Assembly (NCBI RefSeq): GCF_051903065.1
Contig: NZ_CP178438.1
Origin: Escherichia coli
GTDB lineage: Bacteria; Pseudomonadota; Gammaproteobacteria; Enterobacterales; Enterobacteriaceae
Length of the DNA: 64,000 bases
Direction: 5' to 3' (one strand)
Part shown: in pieces, positions 2-57,952 of the stretch
Numbering within the stretch: the stretch's first letter is position 1
Layout: each line of letters starts with the position of its first letter
The notes under the pieces: generated by a model
What the model was told of the DNA's origin: nothing
What the model saw: the letters and a program-made list of their open reading frames with translations, nothing else
Databases searched by the model: none
Translations under genes and position numbers: made by a program

Positions 2-1450
2 GACTTAAACCCTAACGTCGCCAACCGCAACAAAGGCCCACGCCGTCAGCCGGAAAAGAATGTTTTCACCGATGAACAGATTGAGAAGCTGGAAGAAATC
101 TTCCATTCCTCCATGTTCAACTACCAGCGCCACTGGTGGGAAGCCGGAAAAACCAACCGCATCCGCAACCTGCTGAAGTCACGCCAGATCGGCGCAACCT
201 TCTATTTTGCCCGTGAAGCCCTGATTGACGCCCTGCTGACCGGACGTAACCAGATTTTCCTTTCCGCCAGCAAGGCACAGGCCCACGTCTTTAAGCAGTA
301 CATCATCGACTTCGCCAAAGAAGTGGAGGTGGAGCTGAAAGGTGATCCGATGGTGCTTCCTAACGGTGCCACGCTTTACTTCCTCGGCACCAATGCCCGC
401 ACTGCCCAGAGTTATCACGGCAACCTGTATCTGGATGAATATTTCTGGATACCGAAATTTCAGGAGCTGCGCAAAGTGGCTTCCGGTATGGCTATTCACA
501 AAAAATGGCGACAAACCTATTTTTCCACGCCATCCAGCCTGACACACAGTGCTTATCCGTTCTGGTCCGGTGCGCTGTTCAACCGTGGACGCAACAAAGC
601 CGACAAGGTGGACATCGACCTGTCCCACAGCAATCTGGCCCCCGGCCTGCTGTGCGCAGACGGGCAATACCGCCAGATAGTCACCGTGGAAGATGCGGTG
701 CGCGGCGGCTGTAACCTGTTCGACCTCGACCAGCTACGCATGGAGTACAGCCCGGACGAATACCAGAACCTGCTGATGTGCGAGTTCGTGGACGATCTCG
801 CGTCCGTGTTCCCGCTCAGCGAACTGCAGGCGTGCATGGTGGACAGTTGGGAAGTCTGGACCGACTTTCATGCACTGGCCCTGCGCCCGTTTGGCTGGCG
901 CGAGGTGTGGATCGGTTATGACCCGGCAAAAGGTACGCAGAACGGCGACAGCGCCGGATGCGTGGTGGTGGCACCGCCAGCCGTGCCAGGCGGTAAGTTT
1001 CGCATTCTTGAGCGTCACCAGTGGCGCGGGATGGACTTCCGCGCCCAGGCTGACGCCATCAAAAAACTGACCGAACAGTACAACGTGACCTATATCGGCA
1101 TCGACTCGACAGGTGTCGGTCACGGGGTTTACGAGAACGTGAAAGCGTTCTTTCCTGCCGTCCGGGAGTTTGTCTACAACCCCAACGTTAAAAACGCCCT
1201 GGTACTCAAAGCCTACGACATTATCAGTCACCGTCGTCTGGAGTTTGACGCCGGACACACCGACATAGCGCAGTCATTTATGGCAATCCGTCGCGCCACC
1301 ACCGCCAGTGGCAACCGCCCGACCTATGAAGCCAGCCGCAGCGAAGAAGCCAGCCACGCCGATCTGGCCTGGGCAACGATGCACGCACTGTTTAACGAAC
1401 CGCTGCAGGGCGAGTCCGCCAATACCAGCAATATTGTGGAGATTTTTTGA
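2..1450 (+). CDS. Phage terminase large (ATPase) subunit, P2 gpP-like; 5' end lies off the window (reading frame open to position 2)
   Basis: Translation shows a terminase-type ATPase N-region (KSRQIGATFYFAREA) and no in-frame stop upstream of 113; gene order P then Q as in P2-family phages. Confidence 0.8.
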   Translation, partial: DLNPNVANRNKGPRRQPEKNVFTDEQIEKLEEIFHSSMFNYQRHWWEAGKTNRIRNLLKSRQIGATFYFAREALIDALLTGRNQIFLSASKAQAHVFKQYIIDFAKEVEVELKGDPMVLPNGATLYFLGTNARTAQSYHGNLYLDEYFWIPKFQELRKVASGMAIHKKWRQTYFSTPSSLTHSAYPFWSGALFNRGRNKADKVDIDLSHSNLAPGLLCADGQYRQIVTVEDAVRGGCNLFDLDQLRMEYSPDEYQNLLMCEFVDDLASVFPLSELQACMVDSWEVWTDFHALALRPFGWREVWIGYDPAKGTQNGDSAGCVVVAPPAVPGGKFRILERHQWRGMDFRAQADAIKKLTEQYNVTYIGIDSTGVGHGVYENVKAFFPAVREFVYNPNVKNALVLKAYDIISHRRLEFDAGHTDIAQSFMAIRRATTASGNRPTYEASRSEEASHADLAWATMHALFNEPLQGESANTSNIVEIF

Positions 1451-2475
1451 TGGGAAAGAGTAAGAAAAACCGCGCTGCGGCGACGAATCAGCTCAAGCAT
1501 AAAAGCCAAACTTCAGCCGAAGCATTCAGCTTCGGTGATCCCATTCCAGTACTTGACCGCCGCGAACTGCTGGACTATGTGGAATGCGTACAGACGGATC
1601 GCTGGTATGAGCCACCCGTAAGTTTTGACGGACTGGCGCGAACATTCCGCGCCGCCGTTCACCACAGCTCACCGATTGCAGTGAAATGCAACATTCTGAC
1701 CAGTACCTACATCCCTCACCCGCTGCTCAGCCAGCAGGCTTTTTCGCGTTTTGTGCAGGACTATCTGGTTTTTGGTAACGCCTACCTGGAGAAACGCACG
1801 AACCGGTTCGGTGAAGTGATCGCCATTGAGCCTGCTCTGGCAAAATACACCCGACGCGGGTTAGACCTTGATACCTACTGGTTTGTGCAATACGGTATGA
1901 CAACCCAGCCGTATCAGTTCACGAAAGGCAACATTTTTCATCTGATGGAACCTGACATTAACCAGGAGATCTACGGCCTGCCCAGCTATCTTTCTGCTAT
2001 TCCGTCCGCCCTGCTCAACGAGTCCGCCACGCTGTTCCGCCGCAAGTATTACATTAACGGCAGCCATGCAGGTTTCATCATGTACATGACCGATGCCGCG
2101 CAGAACCAGGAGGATGTGAACAACCTCCGCAACGCGATGAAAAGCGCCAAAGGTCCAGGCAATTTCCGCAACCTGTTTATGTACTCGCCTAACGGCAAAA
2201 AAGACGGACTTCAGATCATTCCTCTGTCTGAAGTCGCGGCGAAGGATGAGTTTTTAAACATCAAGAACGTGAGCCGGGACGATATGATGGCTGCGCATCG
2301 TGTTCCGCCACAGATGATGGGGATCATGCCGAATAATGTTGGGGGGTTTGGGGATGTGGAGAAGGCCAGCCGCGTGTTTGTCCGAAATGAATTGATGCCG
2401 CTTCAAAAATGTCTTGAAGGTATCAATTGTTGGCTAGATGCAGATGTAATAAAGTTTAACCAATACATTTTGTAA
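1447..2475 (+). CDS. Phage portal (capsid) protein, P2 gpQ-like
   Basis: 342-aa ORF immediately downstream of and overlapping the terminase gene; size and position match P2 Q. Confidence 0.75.
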   Translation: MMGKSKKNRAAATNQLKHKSQTSAEAFSFGDPIPVLDRRELLDYVECVQTDRWYEPPVSFDGLARTFRAAVHHSSPIAVKCNILTSTYIPHPLLSQQAFSRFVQDYLVFGNAYLEKRTNRFGEVIAIEPALAKYTRRGLDLDTYWFVQYGMTTQPYQFTKGNIFHLMEPDINQEIYGLPSYLSAIPSALLNESATLFRRKYYINGSHAGFIMYMTDAAQNQEDVNNLRNAMKSAKGPGNFRNLFMYSPNGKKDGLQIIPLSEVAAKDEFLNIKNVSRDDMMAAHRVPPQMMGIMPNNVGGFGDVEKASRVFVRNELMPLQKCLEGINCWLDADVIKFNQYIL

Positions 2476-2486
2476 ATTCCTTCGGT

Positions 2487-2511
2487 AAAAGGCCGCTATG
2501 CGGCCTTTTTT
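2487..2511. terminator. Bidirectional hairpin terminator between portal gene and convergent cargo gene
   Basis: ggccgc-tat-gcggcc stem-loop flanked by A-run and T-run. Confidence 0.6.
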
Positions 2512-3202
2512 AATTTGCGTCATCATTTTTTTTATTTTCTAAAGACTCAATATACCCTCGCAAATTAAATTCTTTATTTTCTCTGAGTTTAGGTCCTTCT
2601 TTAGTATCTGAGCCTCGTTGCTCACGTAAACTTTTATTCAAAGCATCGATCAATTCTTGTCTAGAGATTTCCGTTGCAATTAACCCATCAAAATATCTCT
2701 TCATTTTTCTCGCGCTCTCGGTTACTTTAACAACTTCAAAACCAAGGCAGAGCAAATAAATTAGCGTTGTTATTGTAAATCCAGTATCTACAGAGATAAA
2801 ATAGCCAATATCGAGCACTTTCTTAAGTGATTCCAAGGGCATAACCATGCACAATAAAACCAAAAGCAAACCAGTGCCAAGATATAAATAAGTCATTGAG
2901 TTTCTTTCAATCAGCTTGAAGTACTCATCTCTCTGACCTTCAAAGCTAGCAACAATCTTAGGGGGTGTTTTTTTTGGAAGATCGAGGTCTCGAATTTTAT
3001 CCTGAAGATCTACGTATCTTTTAATAAGTAAACCGACTATGGCAGCAGTGATTAATGAAAGCGTTTTCGATAAAATATTGCCCATTTCCACGAGCACATT
3101 TAATTTATAATTAATCAGATATACTACACTCGATGCCAATACTCCACTTAAAATGGATAATATTATATAAAACGCATATCGCTCCACTCGATTTTTAATC
3201 AT
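2510..3202 (-). CDS. Hypothetical 4-TM membrane protein (candidate effector of a two-gene cargo cassette)
   Basis: 230-aa ORF with about four hydrophobic helices and a charged C-terminal tail; AT-rich; overlaps upstream gene by 4 bp. Confidence 0.6.
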   Translation of the reverse strand: MIKNRVERYAFYIILSILSGVLASSVVYLINYKLNVLVEMGNILSKTLSLITAAIVGLLIKRYVDLQDKIRDLDLPKKTPPKIVASFEGQRDEYFKLIERNSMTYLYLGTGLLLVLLCMVMPLESLKKVLDIGYFISVDTGFTITTLIYLLCLGFEVVKVTESARKMKRYFDGLIATEISRQELIDALNKSLREQRGSDTKEGPKLRENKEFNLRGYIESLENKKNDDAN

Positions 3203-4188
3203 GGATTTATTACCCCATCAGCTAACAATCTGAGCAACCACTCTACCATTTCCTCACAAACGCTATCAATAACAGGCATCCCATTATTATATTCAATATT
3301 GACGGTGTCTTTTATTTGTATTTCGTCATTTCTTAAAATACCTGCGCCTTTTAACTCTATGGTTAATGCTTCATCACGGTTATCGATAAGAGCCTCCGTA
3401 ATTTTCCTTAAAATATTTTGTTCCTCATCATTAGCTTTATATTTATACCCTATAGAAACATCTATCGTTAAATGTTCTCGAGACATGTCAACTGAAACAT
3501 CCTGTGATGCATTGTGTTTACGCAACACATCAACTCTGTGCTCACCGATAAGAGATTTCAATAATTCACTAGCGACATCATCTACTCCATCTCCATAAGA
3601 GGATAGAGGCAGCTTCAAGCTTACATTTTTTACATTGCTACGCATCAGCAATTCATTAGTCAAACGTAAATTTCCTGCTTGTAATATAATAAAGTTATCA
3701 ACATCAACCCTTAGATTATCCTTCAAAATGTAATTAATATAATTTTCAATATCTTTAATTCTAATTGCACGACTTTGCAATATTATTACATGATTTTTGA
3801 CAATCCCGATATATGCAACACTATCTAAATATTCTTTCGGAACACTTCCAGTAAGCTTTAATGCTTCATAAGCCAATCGATTTTTTTTATATTCTGAAAC
3901 ATCAAAAACTGGCACACTATTCCCTGGCTCAATATAAACTATTTCACCAAAAAATATACCATTCCGTTCGAAGGAATCAGATAAAACCATGTGCGCGTGG
4001 CTGCTAACACAAGGGTCACTATCTCCAGTTTCAAGATAGTAAATTCTGTCCTCAACGGTTGGAAACTTGTGATTAACAATTTCGTTCATACGATTCTGCA
4101 AATCACTTGCTAAAAGAGCATCCTTTTTAGGAAGCATTACTGCGTGTCGATAGTGTAACGCTTTAACTTTTGAGGGATTACTGGCCAT
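3199..4188 (-). CDS. Hypothetical soluble protein (candidate sensor partner of the 4-TM protein); alternative TTG start at 4230
   Basis: ORF 3199..4230 in track; the ATG at 4188 (MASNPSKV) has a GGA 7 nt upstream; AT-rich; no family recognised. Confidence 0.55.
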   Translation of the reverse strand: MASNPSKVKALHYRHAVMLPKKDALLASDLQNRMNEIVNHKFPTVEDRIYYLETGDSDPCVSSHAHMVLSDSFERNGIFFGEIVYIEPGNSVPVFDVSEYKKNRLAYEALKLTGSVPKEYLDSVAYIGIVKNHVIILQSRAIRIKDIENYINYILKDNLRVDVDNFIILQAGNLRLTNELLMRSNVKNVSLKLPLSSYGDGVDDVASELLKSLIGEHRVDVLRKHNASQDVSVDMSREHLTIDVSIGYKYKANDEEQNILRKITEALIDNRDEALTIELKGAGILRNDEIQIKDTVNIEYNNGMPVIDSVCEEMVEWLLRLLADGVINP

Positions 4189-4270
4189 GAAACATCCATT
4201 ATTAATCTTAGATTTAGTGATATGGAACAATCATACAATCTGTTAATTTTTCTTGCCACAACTCCTTTTC

Positions 4271-4300
4271 GCGCGCTCGTATCCCCGCCACGCCTGCCCG
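4271..4300 (-). other. Putative phage cos site (cohesive-end region)
   Basis: Reverse complement reads GGCGTGGCGGGGATACGAG, resembling the P2/186 cohesive-end sequence as recalled from memory. Confidence 0.35.
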
Positions 4301-4498
4301 CTTTATGTAGTGGTTTTCATGCAGGTGCATGATCTACGCAAAAGCCCGCCAGTTCTGGCGGGCCTTAGCAAAAACGATCCTCAAACGATCATGCGATCTC
4401 ATGCGGCATAGACATGCACTACAGAGCTAACGCCTCGCAAGGGCTCGTTGTTCAACCTTGCTGACGCCAGAAACAAGTTCAGACGCCAGCAACGTTTC

Positions 4499-4732
4499 TT
4501 AATGCAGCCAGCTGTCGTCTTCCCACACCTTCTGCATAATTTTCATCACTTGTTTTCTTTCTTCGTCCAGTTGCAGTCCGGTCAGTTCCACACCGTTAGA
4601 GCTACCTTTGCGGATACGAATTACCGTTTTGGGATACAGGGGGCGCAGATTGCGGTAAAGCTCGGATTCAAGGGCGTCCAGTGTAGACTGGCTAATCTTC
4701 TGCTCTTTATCGATCATTATTTCAATGCGCAT
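4499..4732 (-). CDS. DinI-like protein (possibly the C-terminal part of a frameshifted tum-like antirepressor gene)
   Basis: Translation MRIEIMIDKEQ...WEDDSWLH resembles the DinI family; the longer ORF 4499..4804 overlaps the upstream small ORF in another frame. Confidence 0.6.
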   Translation of the reverse strand: MRIEIMIDKEQKISQSTLDALESELYRNLRPLYPKTVIRIRKGSSNGVELTGLQLDEERKQVMKIMQKVWEDDSWLH

Positions 4733-4742
4733 AAAAGTCACC

Positions 4743-4931
4743 TCAGCTGATGACATCCATTGAGCGGTTGTATTCGTGGGTTCTGATTTTTGCCATGAGT
4801 TCATCTGTCAGTTCAGAAACCCACTGCAGAGCCAGCCCCTTCTCTTCATCACTACACTCACTAGCCGCTACAAGCTTAAGAAAAAAATCAATGCGCTGGA
4901 GCTTCAAAGACTCCAAAAAATAGTCCTGCAT
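4743..4931 (-). CDS. Small SOS-regulated ORF (possible N-terminal part of a tum-like gene)
   Basis: 62-aa ORF directly downstream of a LexA box; with the DinI-like ORF spans about 144 codons. Confidence 0.4.
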   Translation of the reverse strand: MQDYFLESLKLQRIDFFLKLVAASECSDEEKGLALQWVSELTDELMAKIRTHEYNRSMDVIS

Positions 4932-4972
4932 CTTTCCTCCTATGACACCAAAGCAATACTGTATATATAATC

Positions 4973-4992
4973 ACTGTTTATATTTACAGTAT
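4973..4992. promoter_or_regulatory. LexA (SOS) box upstream of the tum/DinI-like operon
   Basis: CTGT-N8-ACAG core (ctgtttatatttacag) at 4974..4989 in an AT-rich promoter region, preceded by a CTGT half-site. Confidence 0.6.
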
Positions 4993-5083
4993 ATAATAAT
5001 CTTACTGATGTAAAACGTTTTTTTACGTTCATCAGCCTGATATGCCTGGTATTATTAAGAGCACGAATTGTTAACCCGCGTAA

Positions 5084-7498
5084 TTAATACAGGTTTCGCC
5101 ACTTATCATCTTCCTGCAAACGCTGGTTCCGATAGAAGATACGCAGGCCTGCTCCTGACGGAATACTGCCACCGCGAAGGAGTAAATCGACCTCTTTCTC
5201 GCTGCCATCAAATCCTCTGGACTTCAGTTCATAGACGAGCTGCTGTCGCTGATGATCTGTAATTCGCTGTTTGTAGTCTTTACGCCGTTTCGGCTTAACC
5301 AGGCGTAACCTTGCTGCCAGTTCCCGGCGCTCTTTTTTGCTCATACTGTGCAGATAATCGTGCAACTCCTTGTCATCCATGCGGGTAATATCCGTTCTGG
5401 TGTCCCCATCAGCTGATTTATCTTTCTCCTGTTGGTTCAAATTTTCAGCAAGGGGACAGTTATTGCCACGAGTCCAAGGGGCGCAAGCGCCCTGGTCGGC
5501 TACCGCCTCCTGAACGTCAACGGCTTTACGAACCATTTTCCACTTCACTGCATGAGTGCAGATCTTGCCCTCTGCAATGGGTGACCAGATGCCATAAATA
5601 CGAATGCCGTGATCGCCATAGGCGGTCGGCTCTTCGTTAATTTCATAAGCAGTTCTGATGAGGTGATATTTGCGGGGAACCAGTACGCCACCCTGCTTCA
5701 TGATGTAAGTGGCAAAACAACCAGCATCAGCAGCAGCCAGGATGGCATCAAGGCGCGGGTTATCCAGTACCGGCGCACCTGCTTTTTTGTCGCCCTGTTG
5801 CCTTGCCGCCTGACCAGCCAGCAATCGCAGTTCACGGTAAGCCTGACGCCCCGGAATACCAAAGAAGCGGAATTGCTGAACACGATGCAGAGACGCCCAG
5901 GCATTAACGTATTCAGCGTTATCACGCAGGGATTTACCCGTTTCCTTGCTGATCTCGCCAGCCAGACCACGCCCGTCAATGTTCTTACTAATGTATTTCG
6001 CAATGTAGCTTGTCGGCGTTCCTTTGCGCGGGTTTATCAGCTCAGACTTAAAGCGTGGCCCCGTGTTATTGCCCAGCTCCTCGCGGTCTTCACGGATGGC
6101 AAACTTACGCAACAATGCAGTAATGGCGCGGCGGTCTTTTTTGCGCATGAAACACAACAGGTGCCAGTGAACTGTGCCGTCATGATGCGGCTCAGCCACC
6201 CGCACGCCATACCAGCGCAACCCGGCTTTGTGCATAGCCTTACGAAATGCAGCAAACATGCCGACCAGATAATCGCTGCTTTGTCTTACTGTCGCGTTGG
6301 TCCAGGTCGGGTTTGGCCTGCCGTTATTTAGCGTGGAATGGAAACGTGACGGACAGGTGATGGTGTAGAAAACGGCGCAGTCACCACGCATTTCCGCGAT
6401 AAGCTCCAGGCCTTTAACACAGGCCATCATCTCGTTGCGGCGATGCGCCGGGTTGCTGCTGCTGGCGTTTACCACATCCTCCATGTTCAGCGTGTCGCCG
6501 TCTTCGTTCACCAGTTCATGAGAACGGAAAAACTCCAGCGACTTACGGCGCTGCTCACGTTTATGCATCACGGCTTCATAGCTAACATAGGGAGATGCTT
6601 TTTTGCTGACCAGGCAGACAGCACGCAACTGCTCTTCCCGCAATTCGCAACGCATCTTCCATAATTTCCGATACCACCAGTCGGCGCACAGCATACGCGC
6701 CAGCGAACCCGGAATGAGTTCATAAGGCACAGGTTTGCGGCGGTTTCTTTTCCGGCGGAGTTGCTCAAACGCAGGCGGTATGACATCCAGTCGCAGGGTT
6801 TCTGCAGCCACCTTTTCCCATGTCTTGCGGATTTCTTCTGGCTTAACATCATCGGAGGCGTACAAATCACCACAAGCGGCATCAAGACACATGCTCATAT
6901 GCGCAGCGACAAGGGTAGACAGGCGTTTCACCTGATCCTGACTCATTTCAGGCAGGATCAGCAGACCGTCCAGCCCCTCATGGCTTGCCATAAAACGAAA
7001 AGATGCAGATAGCTGGCTGTCGCGTACATGCTCCAGTCGTTCCAGACATGGCTTAATCGTCTCACGCAAATAGCGGGAATAAGCCTTTGGCCTGCCCATG
7101 CTGCTGAAATATTCAATACGTTGCATCAGCGGCTTGCTGATATGGGAAGGCTGGGCGTTGACGTCAGCCAGAATGACCATGTCTGGATTAAAACGCTGCT
7201 GCTCATGCGCCATCTTTGCCCGGCTAATGAGCTTATCCTGCTCCATTTCGCGTTGGACAGGATCACGGGATTCATTAAAGAAATAATGCTCCCAGACCTG
7301 ATCACTCAGTGCCTCGCGGCGCAGTTGTTCCTGCTCGTTATCGGTAGCGTACAGAGTGATCAGGTTTGAAAGCGCAGAAACCGGCGCAACTTCCGCCGGG
7401 TCCAGATAAGGGTTAATGGCCTTTTTCGGGCTGTTCCATGAGAACGCTGCGGCAGCCTCGTTAAAGCCGCAGCAGTTGTTCATATCGGCATGACTCAT
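5084..7498 (-). CDS. Phage replication initiation protein (P2/186 gene A-like rolling-circle endonuclease)
   Basis: 804-aa ORF in the early-operon position of P2-like phages. Confidence 0.75.
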
Positions 7499-8352
7499 GC
7501 ACGTACTCCGTACACGGCAGAACTATCCACGCCACGCGAATAATCAAATCCCACCCAGCAGCGCGGCCCGGAAACAGCAATGATTTCTGTTGCTGATTTA
7601 CCCTCGCCAGCTGCCACACCGATGCTGCGTTTTACCTTGATATAGTGGTGAATAAAATTGCGATACAGCGAACGGATCAGGGATGTGTCACTGTTAGAAA
7701 CAATGACCGGATGTCCTTCTGATGACCGATGTTCAAGAACGGATGCCAGGTGATACTGATCATCTTCAGTGAAACCATCAGTGTGATAGCCGGAAAACGT
7801 ACCGTCATACGGCGGATCGCAATACACCACATCCCCCGCCTTCAACATCGCCAGCGTTTCATCAAAGCTGGCGCAGATAAACGTTGCTCGCTGGGCTTTT
7901 TCTGCAAATGCGCGAATTTCTTTTTCAGGGAAATACGGATTTTTATAATTACCGTAGGGAATGTTGAAATGCCCGCTCTTGTTATAGCGACATAAACCAC
8001 GGTAACCGTGACGATTGAGATACAGGAAATATACCGCTTTCATGAAATCAGTAATTTCAGTTGAGTAATTAAACTCCTGCCTTATGTTGTAATAAGCCAC
8101 CTCCCTGTTTGCGATCTCAAATAAAACTCTGGCGCGAGATATAAACGATTCACAATCAGCAGCAACCTTTTTATAGAGGTTGATTAAATCAGGATTAATA
8201 TCCGCAACAAGATAGCTGGGGTACTCCGTCTCCATCATCACTGCACAGGAACCCGCGAAAGGTTCAACCAGTCGCGGGCCAGCAGGAAGGTGTTTTTTCA
8301 GTTCGGACATAATTGCGGTTTTATTTCCCGCCCATTTCAGGATGGTGCTCAT
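7495..8352 (-). CDS. DNA adenine methyltransferase (Dam-like, phage-encoded orphan MTase); start may lie further upstream at 8412
   Basis: ILKWAGNK N-terminal motif and DPPY catalytic motif in translation. Confidence 0.8.
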
Positions 8353-8576
8353 ACAGCACCTCCGTTGTAATGTTTGCCTTTCAGCTCTGCGATTTCCTGA
8401 CAGGTAATGCAAAGCTGCACTCCAGGAATGGCGCGGCGGCGTGCTGGCGGAATTGGCACTTCACATTCAATGCAAAGCACGCGAGACACGCCCGGTGTTT
8501 TGGCACGGGCAGCACGGATATGGCGCTGGCGTTCTTCTTCAACGCGCTGCTGTACGAGATCCATTGCATCAGCCAT
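8349..8576 (-). CDS. TraR/DksA-family C4 zinc-finger protein
   Basis: 75-aa ORF with CxxC...CxxC spacing (CIECEVPI...CITCQE). Confidence 0.6.
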   Translation of the reverse strand: MADAMDLVQQRVEEERQRHIRAARAKTPGVSRVLCIECEVPIPPARRRAIPGVQLCITCQEIAELKGKHYNGGAV

Positions 8577-8815
8577 TAGTGGATCTCCTGCGCTTCGTTC
8601 TGGATTGCTTCAGCGGTCACACGCAGCAGTTCTGCCGCTTCGACGTGGTTTAGCTGGCGGGATGTGATATGACACGCAAGACTATCAAGGCGGGCAGCCA
8701 TTGCTTCAGCCCTTGCCCGGCGTTCTTCCAGACGAGCCTCTGTCAGTAAAATATTAAGCCCTACGTCATCCGGTCCGGTTTTAGTCGTGAGGGTTTCAAT
8801 ATTACGCATAATCAA
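8576..8815 (-). CDS. Hypothetical prophage early protein
   Basis: 79-aa ORF in operon context, translationally coupled to neighbours. Confidence 0.4.
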   Translation of the reverse strand: MIMRNIETLTTKTGPDDVGLNILLTEARLEERRARAEAMAARLDSLACHITSRQLNHVEAAELLRVTAEAIQNEAQEIH

Positions 8816-8876
8816 TTCTCCTGAATTTAGATAAAGGGATGCCCGGCGGGTTTACGCCATTAATTTCATTAGTTGG

Positions 8877-9218
8877 TTAATTCGGCATGGTTAGCCGTCT
8901 GGGAAATAAGCTCACTACTGCACGAAAATGATTCATTGCTTTAATCAACTCCCGCTTTTCGTCAGTGGTCAGCTCATTAATGCTGATGCTATGACGTTCA
9001 GCTGGAATTTTTGCCATAAAGAATATGGCAGCCAGTGCCCGTTTATTTTGTTCGCTATTAATATCCCGTGGATCACGCATATCTTTAATAAACCGTTCAA
9101 GCTCTGACTCAATATTAAGACCAAAAACTTTCGCCCTTAACTCCGCAATATGATTAAGTCCATTCAGGCGTTCACCGGGGCTTAATGGAACAGTCGCCGC
9201 AGCGCCTTCAATAGCCAT
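8877..9218 (-). CDS. Hypothetical prophage early protein
   Basis: 113-aa ORF in early operon. Confidence 0.4.
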   Translation of the reverse strand: MAIEGAAATVPLSPGERLNGLNHIAELRAKVFGLNIESELERFIKDMRDPRDINSEQNKRALAAIFFMAKIPAERHSISINELTTDEKRELIKAMNHFRAVVSLFPRRLTMPN

Positions 9219-10293: not shown

Positions 10294-10926
10294 ATGATAC
10301 AGGTAAAGGCTGGAGAGAATACAGGGGGAAGAGAGGCTATCCATAGACTAATGGCAGCCTATGATTTCAAGTCCAGACAGCAACTTTGCGATCACTTAGG
10401 CGCATCAAAAAGCACCATGGCAAACAGATACTTAAGAGATAGTTTTCCTGCAGAGTGGGTGATTCAGTGCGCCTTGGAAACAGGAGTTTCTTTACTGTGG
10501 CTAACCACCGGACAGGGAGAGCCAGGTCCAAACATTGAACCTAAAAAAAATATCAATTCCGTGAACTCCAGCAAAGTTGTACCTCTTTCTGAACTAGTAT
10601 CTCCTGAAATTGACAAGGCGACTCTCAACGGTGGTTTATTGGTCGATGCTGGAAAAGCAATCATTGATAGCAGCATACTCCCCTCAGACTCAAGCAACCT
10701 ACTGCTGGTGACTACTTCTGGTGATTCTTATTTAATAGATCGCAACCAAACACCACCAGTAAATGGTATGTGGTTAGTCGATATCGACGGGATAAAAAGC
10801 ATTGTTAAATTGACTCGGCTCCCGGGAAACAAATTAGTAGTGCATCAGGATGATTCATCGTTTGAGTGCGGTCTGGATGACATTGAGGTAGTAGGCCGCG
10901 CACTGAAAATCATTAAGAGCCTTTGA
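10294..10926 (+). CDS. cI: Prophage CI-like immunity repressor
   Basis: 210-aa ORF with N-terminal HTH, located directly upstream of int as in 186. Confidence 0.6.
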   Translation: MIQVKAGENTGGREAIHRLMAAYDFKSRQQLCDHLGASKSTMANRYLRDSFPAEWVIQCALETGVSLLWLTTGQGEPGPNIEPKKNINSVNSSKVVPLSELVSPEIDKATLNGGLLVDAGKAIIDSSILPSDSSNLLLVTTSGDSYLIDRNQTPPVNGMWLVDIDGIKSIVKLTRLPGNKLVVHQDDSSFECGLDDIEVVGRALKIIKSL

Positions 10927-10927
10927 T

Positions 10928-11941
10928 ATGACCATCAGAAAACAGCCGAACGGAAAATGGTTGTGTGAGTGCTATCCCAATGGACGCAATGGCAAGCGCG
11001 TGCGTAAGCAATTTGCTACGAAAGGCGAAGCCATTGCGTTTGAAAGCTTCACAATGGAAGAAGTGAATAAAAAACCGTGGTTGGGTGAAAAGGATGATCG
11101 GCGACGCCTATCAGAATTAATTGAGCTTTGGTATTCCCTGTATGGTCAAACACTCGCAGACCCCAAGCGCCTCATGGCGAAACTTAGAATTATCTGTAAT
11201 GGTCTAGGCGATCCCATCGCCTCAGAACTGACAGCTGGTGACTTTACAAAATACCGCGAAGCACGGTTAAAAGGTGAAATACGAAATGAAGATGGCACGC
11301 TTATGTCGCCCGTTAAGCCCCGCACGGTAAACCTTGAACAGCGCAATCTATCATCTGTGTTCGGTACATTAAAAAAACTAGGACACTGGTCAGCACCAAA
11401 CCCGCTGGCAGGACTTCCGACCTTCAAAATTGCCGAAGGTGAGCTGGCTTTTCTTTCCACAGACGAAATCAAGCGCCTGTTGGCGGCATGTGCTGAATCT
11501 CAAAACCCTAGCTTACTAATGATTGCAAAAATATGCCTAGCTACTGGCGCACGGTGGAGTGAAGCCGAAAATCTGCAGGGCCACCAAATATCGAAATACC
11601 GAATTACTTATACAAAAACAAAAGGCAAGAAAAACAGAACAGTACCCATATCACAGGAGCTGTATGACGAACTCCCAAAGAACAGAGGGAAGTTATTCTC
11701 ACCATGTAGAAAAGCCTTTGAACGAGCAGTAAAACGGGCAGGTATAGATCTACCGGATGGCCAATGCACCCACGTGCTGCGACATACGTTTGCTAGTCAC
11801 TTTATGATGAATGGCGGGAACATACTTGTGCTAAGGGATATTTTGGGACATTCGGATATCAAGATGACCATGGTTTACTCACATTTCTCACCAGATCATC
11901 TTGAAGATGCCGTTACTAAGAACCCATTAAACTTGATATAA
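10928..11941 (+). CDS. int: Tyrosine integrase, P2 family
   Basis: 337 aa; C-terminal HxLRHT...Y catalytic region; resembles P2 Int. Confidence 0.9.
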   Translation: MTIRKQPNGKWLCECYPNGRNGKRVRKQFATKGEAIAFESFTMEEVNKKPWLGEKDDRRRLSELIELWYSLYGQTLADPKRLMAKLRIICNGLGDPIASELTAGDFTKYREARLKGEIRNEDGTLMSPVKPRTVNLEQRNLSSVFGTLKKLGHWSAPNPLAGLPTFKIAEGELAFLSTDEIKRLLAACAESQNPSLLMIAKICLATGARWSEAENLQGHQISKYRITYTKTKGKKNRTVPISQELYDELPKNRGKLFSPCRKAFERAVKRAGIDLPDGQCTHVLRHTFASHFMMNGGNILVLRDILGHSDIKMTMVYSHFSPDHLEDAVTKNPLNLI

Positions 11942-51847: not shown

Positions 51848-51924
51848 TGGTGCATCCGGGAGGATTCGAACCTCCGACCGCTCGGTTCGTAGCCGAGTAC
51901 TCTATCCAGCTGAGCTACGGATGC
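51848..51924 (-). tRNA. argQ: tRNA-Arg (anticodon ACG)
   Basis: Reverse complement is GCATCCGTAGCTCAGCTGGATAGAGTACTCGGCTACGAACCGAG...CACCA. Confidence 0.9.
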
Positions 51925-52122
51925 ATCGGGAAAATTTATTTTACTGCTGATATTGATATCGCTACTAAAGCCATATCAAGTAAGAGATGGTGCATCCGGG
52001 AGGATTACTCGCCTTGCGGCTCGCCCTTCGGGCCGTTGCTGGCGCAACGTTATCCTCCCTGGTGCCTGCGGTTAATTCCGCTACCTCTTCGATACCTTCA
52101 TTGCTGAAGATTTCGGAGAATA

Positions 52123-52199
52123 TGGTGCATCCGGGAGGATTCGAACCTCCGACCGCTCGGTTCGTAGCCGAGTACTCTATCCAGCTGAGCTACGGATGC
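52123..52199 (-). tRNA. argZ: tRNA-Arg (anticodon ACG)
   Basis: Identical tRNA-Arg sequence. Confidence 0.9.
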
Positions 52200-52261
52200 A
52201 TCGGGAAATTTATTTTACTGCTGATATTGATACCGCTACTAAAGCTGTATCAAGTAAGAGA

Positions 52262-52338
52262 TGGTGCATCCGGGAGGATTCGAACCTCCGACCGCTCGGT
52301 TCGTAGCCGAGTACTCTATCCAGCTGAGCTACGGATGC
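52262..52338 (-). tRNA. argY: tRNA-Arg (anticodon ACG)
   Basis: Identical tRNA-Arg sequence. Confidence 0.9.
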
Positions 52339-52402
52339 ATCGGGAAACTTACTTTACTGCAGATTTTTTGATACCGCTACTAAAGCCGTATCAAGTAAGA
52401 GA

Positions 52403-52479
52403 TGGTGCATCCGGGAGGATTCGAACCTCCGACCGCTCGGTTCGTAGCCGAGTACTCTATCCAGCTGAGCTACGGATGC
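52403..52479 (-). tRNA. argV: tRNA-Arg (anticodon ACG)
   Basis: Identical tRNA-Arg sequence. Confidence 0.9.
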
Positions 52480-52482
52480 AAA

Positions 52483-52575
52483 TGGCGGTGAGGCGGGGAT
52501 TCGAACCCCGGATGCAGCTTTTGACCGCATACTCCCTTAGCAGGGGAGCGCCTTCAGCCTCTCGGCCACCTCACC
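52483..52575 (-). tRNA. serV: tRNA-Ser (anticodon GCU)
   Basis: Reverse complement is GGTGAGGTGGCCGAGAGGCTGAAGGCGCTCCCCTGCTAAGGGAG...CGCCA with long variable arm. Confidence 0.9.

Positions 52576-56811: not shown

Positions 56812-57952
<1,141 letters not shown>

Follow-up and report, generated by a model that had tools for sequence, protein, structure and literature searches.

A stretch of 64,000 nucleotides from Escherichia coli (contig NZ_CP178438.1 of assembly GCF_051903065.1), referred to here as the window, carries two adjacent minus-strand genes in a prophage, lying between the portal gene and a cos-like site. The question raised by this locus is what the products of the two genes, a soluble protein (A) and a small membrane protein (B), contribute to the prophage and its host, and whether they represent a kind of anti-phage system that has not been described before, as a first-pass annotation made from the sequence alone had considered possible. 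The results presented below indicate that the cassette is probably a RexAB-type two-gene abortive-infection module, an item of exchangeable cargo at the cos-proximal hotspot of a 186/P2-like prophage from which it is expressed. This assignment is made because the soluble protein has a predicted RexA/RdgC fold and its partner has the layout of four transmembrane segments seen in RexB. By analogy with characterized systems, the pair would be a new member of the RexAB-type class with a defence function, and not a new kind of system.

Sequence searches gave little indication of this relationship. Neither A nor B matched any model in Pfam, NCBIfam (June 2026) or PADLOC (2023), in agreement with the first-pass annotation, which could place neither protein in a named family. 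A falls in PHROG 3482, a family of "unknown function", and B matches no PHROG. When 1.84 billion representatives were searched with a profile of 14 A homologues, 902 clusters (50% identity) passed E <= 1e-3 and 567 passed E <= 1e-10; stand-alone proteins of 315-380 amino acids make up nearly all of them. No Pfam family (RexA, DUF4868 and DUF6602 included) was found in any of 150 members of the A family, no PADLOC or NCBIfam model matched ten diverse members, and searches of PDB sequences with the family profiles returned no match.

The predicted structure of A was more informative. An AlphaFold model of the monomer, built on an alignment of 150 sequences, was obtained with good confidence (predicted local distance difference test, pLDDT, 88.7; predicted template modelling score, pTM, 0.83) and supersedes an earlier, weak model made from 14 sequences (pLDDT 68.9). 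A Foldseek search of this model against the PDB ranked RexA first (E 1.8e-5, probability 1.00) as the sole match below 1e-3, and the list of PDB neighbours was the same as that reported by Adams et al. for RexA (PMC11077077). The model runs from an N-terminal antiparallel sheet with helices (residues 1-156) through an inserted alpha/beta domain (166-301) to a returning C-terminal helix (307-323), an order of secondary structure that agrees with the split globular domain of RexA, interrupted by its dimerisation domain. As modelled, A has the fold of lambda RexA and RdgC, in which a dimerisation domain accompanies a split globular domain; this two-domain architecture is the one by which the soluble component of the class is recognised. 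Given that the sequence-level tests were negative and the structure match positive, the relationship between A and RexA is therefore one of fold and not of recognisable sequence. Amongst 413 structural neighbours of the model in AFDB50, nearly all unnamed, the names found were "Recombination-associated protein RdgC" (Kluyvera), "DUF4868 domain-containing protein" (rank 37, E 8e-17, TM-score 0.66-0.69) and "DUF4747 family protein". These names hint at a wider fold superfamily that would link Rex, Kiwa and DUF4747 proteins.

Four hydrophobic segments were located in B by hydropathy (residues 12-30, 42-60, 105-123 and ~135-160). Together with the positive-inside rule, they show B, as judged from its sequence, to be an inner-membrane protein with four predicted transmembrane segments, whose N terminus, 44-residue loop (61-104, with 10 K/R) and 70-residue C-terminal tail (15 K/R and 14 D/E) are on the cytoplasmic side; about four such segments and a charged C-terminal tail had also been seen in the first-pass annotation. 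The partners of A homologues at other loci align with one another and have in common a loop motif and a helical charged segment that follows the fourth transmembrane segment. In long-tailed partners, a motif in the C-terminal region, K-E/A-F-N/D-x-x-x-Y-V/I, is present in B of the window (~210-222) and at loci L006 and L007; looser forms occur at L015, L016-L020 and L023, and the short-tailed partners are without it.

The association of the two proteins was examined at 102 independent loci, and in 100 of these the A homologue is directly followed by a gene for a small membrane protein. The first 22 loci were drawn from phage and prophage sequences, from one satellite and from 16 genomes representing their species; the genomes belong to Gamma- and Betaproteobacteria, apart from one contig that was binned as Actinomycetes. 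All 22 have a partner open reading frame (ORF) of 108-230 amino acids that starts between -29 and +25 nucleotides from the A stop codon; by a crude hydropathy threshold these partners have 2-4 hydrophobic segments, with four in 17/22. The same downstream membrane partner is present in 78/80 viral contigs from IMG/VR. Pairwise identities of A and of B are correlated (r 0.956 over 63 non-redundant pairs, with 0/2000 Mantel permutations as high), and the correlation persists among pairs in which A is less than 50% identical (r 0.74). Altogether, these observations show A and B to be one unit, translationally coupled, strictly paired and co-diverging, in which the gene for A has beside it, in the same orientation, a gene for a small inner-membrane protein with four predicted transmembrane segments, the second component of the class. 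An origin of the two genes as chance ORFs was rejected on the conservation of the pair in 100/102 loci.

The pair is swappable cargo of the cos-proximal region of a 186/P2-like prophage. In P2, a defence hotspot of variable content adjoins cos in the stretch from gpA to gpQ (Rousset et al. 2022; PMC9122126); the first-pass annotation had likewise named variable regions near cos as such hotspots. The window conforms to this arrangement, with the pair placed between the end of the portal gene (2475) and the cos-like site, and with contents that vary among relatives. Closely related 186-like prophages have this very slot filled by a DUF262 protein or by three unrelated ORFs, which bears out the cargo swapping that a comparison of related loci had been expected to reveal. 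Only 2/5426 complete E. coli genomes carry the cassette, as against 1273 that have the cos-side flank (4258-4450).

Close homologues of A (43-74% identity) retain the pair and occupy three kinds of site: the corresponding slot of other enterobacterial P2-like prophages, the hotspot downstream of the primase in a P4-like satellite of Aeromonas hydrophila, and the integrase end of an island in V. cholerae. At the last of these (loci L029/L030, 5001..6631), a 47%-identical A homologue and a partner of 216 amino acids are flanked by a TraN-like gene and by a tyrosine integrase that is next to a dus gene. This position puts the V. cholerae pair at the margin of an integrative element of the dusA type, a further kind of mobile carrier. 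Other family members occupy the classic moron positions of phage genomes. E. coli phage Perceval and Acinetobacter phages have the pair immediately after the CI repressor gene and on its strand, where lambda has rexA-rexB. In SfIV and Stx2a phages, the pair separates the Q antiterminator from the lysis or stx region. In one Acinetobacter phage record the A homologue is labelled "DefenseFinder protein". In Shigella phage SfIV (L002, 3501..4324), the partner has only 108 amino acids and three transmembrane segments and abuts an IS1 transposase gene, and this pair has probably been inactivated by the IS1 insertion.

Amongst the closest known systems, lambda RexAB consists of two co-directional prophage genes with the soluble product first and a protein of four transmembrane segments second. 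The arrangement of these segments is 2+2 in RexB as in B, and distant members of the A family occupy the slot downstream of cI. The two systems differ in that A is 50 residues longer than RexA (structure 8TWQ), B is 86 residues longer than RexB (144 amino acids, with a short loop and no tail), and the pair in the window is in the cos-proximal P2 hotspot, whereas that of lambda is in the immunity region.

Two validated systems are further relevant to this comparison. Sucellos (SclA/SclB), from the V. cholerae superintegron, is an anti-phage system that is structurally RexAB-like and is missed by the Pfam RexA model (Darracq et al., 10.1101/2024.07.02.601686). Both of its genes are required, infected cells die, SclB has been modelled as a transmembrane pore, and its homologues are mostly found in enterobacterial prophages (10.1101/2024.07.02.601686). 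Going by the published description, the window pair resembles Sucellos in its RexAB-like structure, the absence of a Pfam RexA match and its prophage location, and prophage members of the A family occur in Vibrio, Salmonella and E. coli; the V. cholerae relatives found (P0213, P0215) are, however, rare and located in an integrative island and not in the superintegron. RexABpp (PP_5643/PP_5644), from prophage P1 of Pseudomonas putida, needs both genes for defence and combines DNA binding with membrane damage that depends on the B protein (Rosendahl et al. 2026, PMC12894663). BLAST searches with RexABpp return only hypothetical proteins, and HHpred links PP_5643 to RexA with 98% probability (PMC12894663). 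Again by description, RexApp-His (37.5 kDa) is similar in size to A (37.3 kDa), and RexBpp has four transmembrane segments in more than 181 amino acids; the difference is that the profile-profile comparison of the A family with RexA was negative. RdgC, a DNA-binding ring dimer associated with recombination, differs in being a stand-alone housekeeping protein that lacks a membrane partner, whereas here the partner is essentially obligatory. In some lambdoid phages, "RdgC homologues" have also been noted immediately to the left of cI, and a Rex-like role was proposed for them (PMC12315714).

These comparisons bear on the novelty proposed in the first-pass annotation. A cytoplasmic protein paired with a small membrane protein, a layout typical of abortive-infection systems, is indeed present, and by analogy the locus may be retained as a defence candidate of that general sort. 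An undescribed kind of system is not supported, because RexAB-like systems that escape the Pfam RexA model, i.e., Sucellos and RexABpp, have already been validated, and because A has the predicted RexA/RdgC fold and B the RexB-like layout.

If the pair acts as lambda RexAB, Sucellos and RexABpp suggest, a dimer of A would bind DNA non-specifically and would sense an intermediate of phage replication or recombination, or a phage protein. Once activated, A would engage the cytoplasmic loop or the tail of B, and B would then oligomerise into a channel or pore, with collapse of the membrane potential. The infected cell would stop growing or die before the superinfecting phage could finish its cycle, and the population of lysogens would in this way be protected.

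Several observations weigh against assigning the pair to the RexAB type. An hhalign comparison of the A family with RexA alone or with a 24-sequence RexA profile gave a probability below 1% (0.5% against the profile), Pfam RexA (PF15969) matches 0/150 family members, the PADLOC RexAB models find no match, and PHROGs keeps the A family (3482) apart from RexA (12654). For B, the alignment of partners compared with RexB (Pfam PF15968) reached a probability of 0.3%, with no match in Pfam or PADLOC and none to the RexB family of PHROGs (14878). B is also 60% longer than RexB, and its long loop and long tail are not present there. A is acidic overall (pI 5.3), and the pair of the window lies far from the repressor gene, unlike lambda rexAB. 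Additionally, in lambda itself the DNA binding of RexA does not track with exclusion (Adams et al., PMC11077077).

The same parts could be put together differently. In a Kiwa-like arrangement the roles would be reversed, with B as a membrane-embedded sensor and anchor and A as the effector, a dimer that would be set free or activated at the membrane, clamp onto incoming phage DNA and block replication and late transcription without killing the cell. We consider this, the main alternative, unlikely, although the lists of parts are much alike: Kiwa consists of a protein with four transmembrane segments, a cytoplasmic loop and a C-terminal region, and of a soluble dimer of ~315 amino acids that binds DNA non-specifically (10.1101/2023.02.26.530102), and B is likewise predicted to have a long cytoplasmic loop and tail. 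KwaB, however, is described as having a Rossmann-like domain and DUF4868 in place of the split RexA-type fold (10.1101/2023.02.26.530102). DUF4868 was absent from all 150 A family members, the PADLOC KwaA and KwaB models gave no match, and the top structural match in the PDB is RexA and not a Kiwa chain. In Kiwa, kwaA lies upstream of kwaB, whereas here the gene for the soluble protein comes first. Among the validated analogues, Sucellos shows cell death and RexABpp a B-dependent damage of the membrane. One neighbour of A in AFDB50 carries the label DUF4868, the domain of KwaB, and a distant relationship of fold between A and Kiwa is possible.

Two other proposals rank lower still. The pair might serve the life cycle of the phage or superinfection exclusion, with A modulating recombination or the switch between lysogeny and lysis, or with B blocking the entry of DNA from related phages. 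RexA biases the lambda switch towards lytic growth without RexB, and RdgC regulates RecA (PMC11077077); distant family members are located in the immunity region next to cI. The cassette is, moreover, just downstream of a DinI/Tum-like operon controlled by a LexA box, and since transcription from the DinI region is directed at cos and the cassette, it is conceivable that SOS transcripts run on into the pair. We nevertheless find such a role improbable. The window pair and its closest relatives lie far from the repressor, in slots whose contents differ between otherwise near-identical prophages and satellites, where a core regulator of the life cycle is not expected; the pair occurs in only 2/5426 complete E. 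coli genomes, and modulation of the switch would not need a strictly paired membrane protein. Most improbable of all is that A is a toxic or antiviral effector which B sequesters at the membrane until infection frees it. Such logic is attributed to the Rex-like pair gp30/gp31 of Mycobacteriophage Butters in the summary given in PMC12894663, where it is the exception among five Rex-like systems reviewed, and no toxic domain was found in A with Pfam or PADLOC. The RexAB-type abortive-infection module is retained as the favoured assignment.

A few identities were set aside on their own grounds. The domain descriptions of Crouga, Bandua, Aernus, Toga, Reve and Hailong, newly named systems of P2/P4 hotspots, do not fit the pair, and Damona has DUF6602, which is absent here. 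A role in lysis, such as that of a holin, was rejected since the P2 lysis genes are located elsewhere and the pair is not core.

A broader proposal can also be made, which we regard as doubtful. One ancient and very widespread superfamily of immune modules, each combining an RdgC-fold DNA clamp with a protein of four transmembrane segments, may have branched into lambda RexAB and the PHROG-3482 family, to which Sucellos and RexABpp probably belong, and perhaps also into Kiwa and the DUF4747 proteins, the branches having diverged past recognition by sequence. In the subfamily of the window, the membrane protein is marked by a charged tail of 70 residues in which a C-terminal K-x-F/Y motif is conserved. 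This subfamily may link the sensing of DNA to the membrane otherwise than lambda Rex does, e.g., by means of a tail that keeps A at the membrane, as in Kiwa.

The features of the locus are listed in Table 1. The first-pass annotation had described two coupled minus-strand genes overlapping by 4 bp, AT-rich against normal flanks, located between the portal gene and a cos-like site, and sharing a hairpin with the portal gene. The layout was found as described: the ORFs (2510..3202, 230 amino acids; 3199..4230, 343 amino acids from TTG) overlap by the 4 bp ATGA, and the GC content is 0.345 across 2510-4188, compared with 0.542 for 1-2475 (terminase and portal) and 0.50 for 4300-9000. The length given there for A needs revision. 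An ORF of 343 amino acids exists, and yet the gene more likely starts at the ATG at 4188 (329 amino acids) than at the in-frame TTG at 4230, because in the 343-residue form the PHROG match does not start before residue 15, the homologues all align from the ATG-4188 methionine, and the equivalent RefSeq coding sequence in a 99.6%-identical E. coli locus is 990 nucleotides long. In that same locus RefSeq labels the portal gene "phage portal protein", and Pfam Phage_portal was matched in locus L006.

Table 1. Features of the prophage region, in window coordinates
Feature	Position	Strand	Description
Terminase gene	113..1450	+	ORF
Portal gene, P2-family (gpQ type)	1447..2475	+	ORF; bounds the cargo slot on one side
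GC-rich hairpin	2487..2509		10-bp stem AAAAGGCCGC-tat-GCGGCCTTTT; the portal gene and B converge on it, with a stop codon on either side
Gene B	2510..3202	-	230 amino acids, pI 9.0; four predicted transmembrane segments, 2+2 layout; ATG overlaps the A stop codon
Gene A	3199..4188	-	329 amino acids from ATG, 37.3 kDa, pI 5.3; soluble, RexA/RdgC-like fold (predicted structure)
Sigma-70 promoter-like site	4230..4259	-	GTGGCA, 18-nucleotide spacer, TATGAT; 9/12; ~40 nucleotides upstream of the A ATG
cos-like 19-mer	4277..4295		Reverse complement GGCGTGGCGGGGATACGAG; bounds the cargo slot on the replication-gene side, outside the cassette
DinI-family ORF	4499..4804	-	101 amino acids
62-amino-acid ORF	4743..4931	-	Near the DinI-family ORF
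Promoter-like site	4942-4971	opposite	11/12; precedes the DinI-family and 62-amino-acid ORFs
LexA-box-like site	4972..4991		CACTGTTTATATTTACAGTA, one mismatch to TACTGT-N8-ACAGTA; upstream of the DinI-family and 62-amino-acid ORFs
Replication endonuclease gene	5084..7498		Beyond the cos-like site; a Dam methylase gene is also there
CI-type repressor-sized ORF and integrase-sized ORF	within 10294..11941	+	210 and 337 amino acids, respectively

The hairpin is a candidate bidirectional terminator, with the stronger T-run on the + strand, and the site at 4259..4230 is a candidate for the cassette's own promoter; promoter-like sites in the region are no more frequent than in shuffled sequences. The cos-like 19-mer is taken by us to be similar to the cos site of phages 186 and P2, and the region of the DinI-family ORF and LexA-box-like site is similar to that of the tum antirepressor in phage 186, which is under SOS control. 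In near-identical loci, RefSeq annotates a 189-nucleotide pseudogene ("hypothetical protein, internal stop", ~4214..4402, minus strand) over the conserved stretch adjacent to cos, which is probably the cos region itself and not a decayed gene. Judged by its repressor-sized and integrase-sized ORFs, the other end of the 186-like prophage would lie at ~11.9 kb, which places the cassette ~6-7 kb from the immunity region.

Outside the prophage, a cluster of four tRNA-Arg(ACG) genes and one tRNA-Ser(GCT) gene was noted within 51848..52575. A perfect LexA box, TACTGTATGCTCATACAGTA, is located at 57933..57952, just upstream of a minus-strand ORF of 358 amino acids (56812..57888) that is presumably recA.

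Among abortive-infection systems, RexAB is the one that has been known longest. The main result of this work is that a large unannotated family, with ~900 clusters at 50% identity, has been tied to the Rex fold and a gap in annotation thereby closed. No new principle is involved; what was a "hypothetical" pair in the window is now a defence candidate that can be tested. The link also suggests that Rex-type immunity is far commoner than searches with lambda-like sequences show, and its members provide many natural variants in which the communication between a DNA-clamp-like sensor and a membrane effector can be studied.

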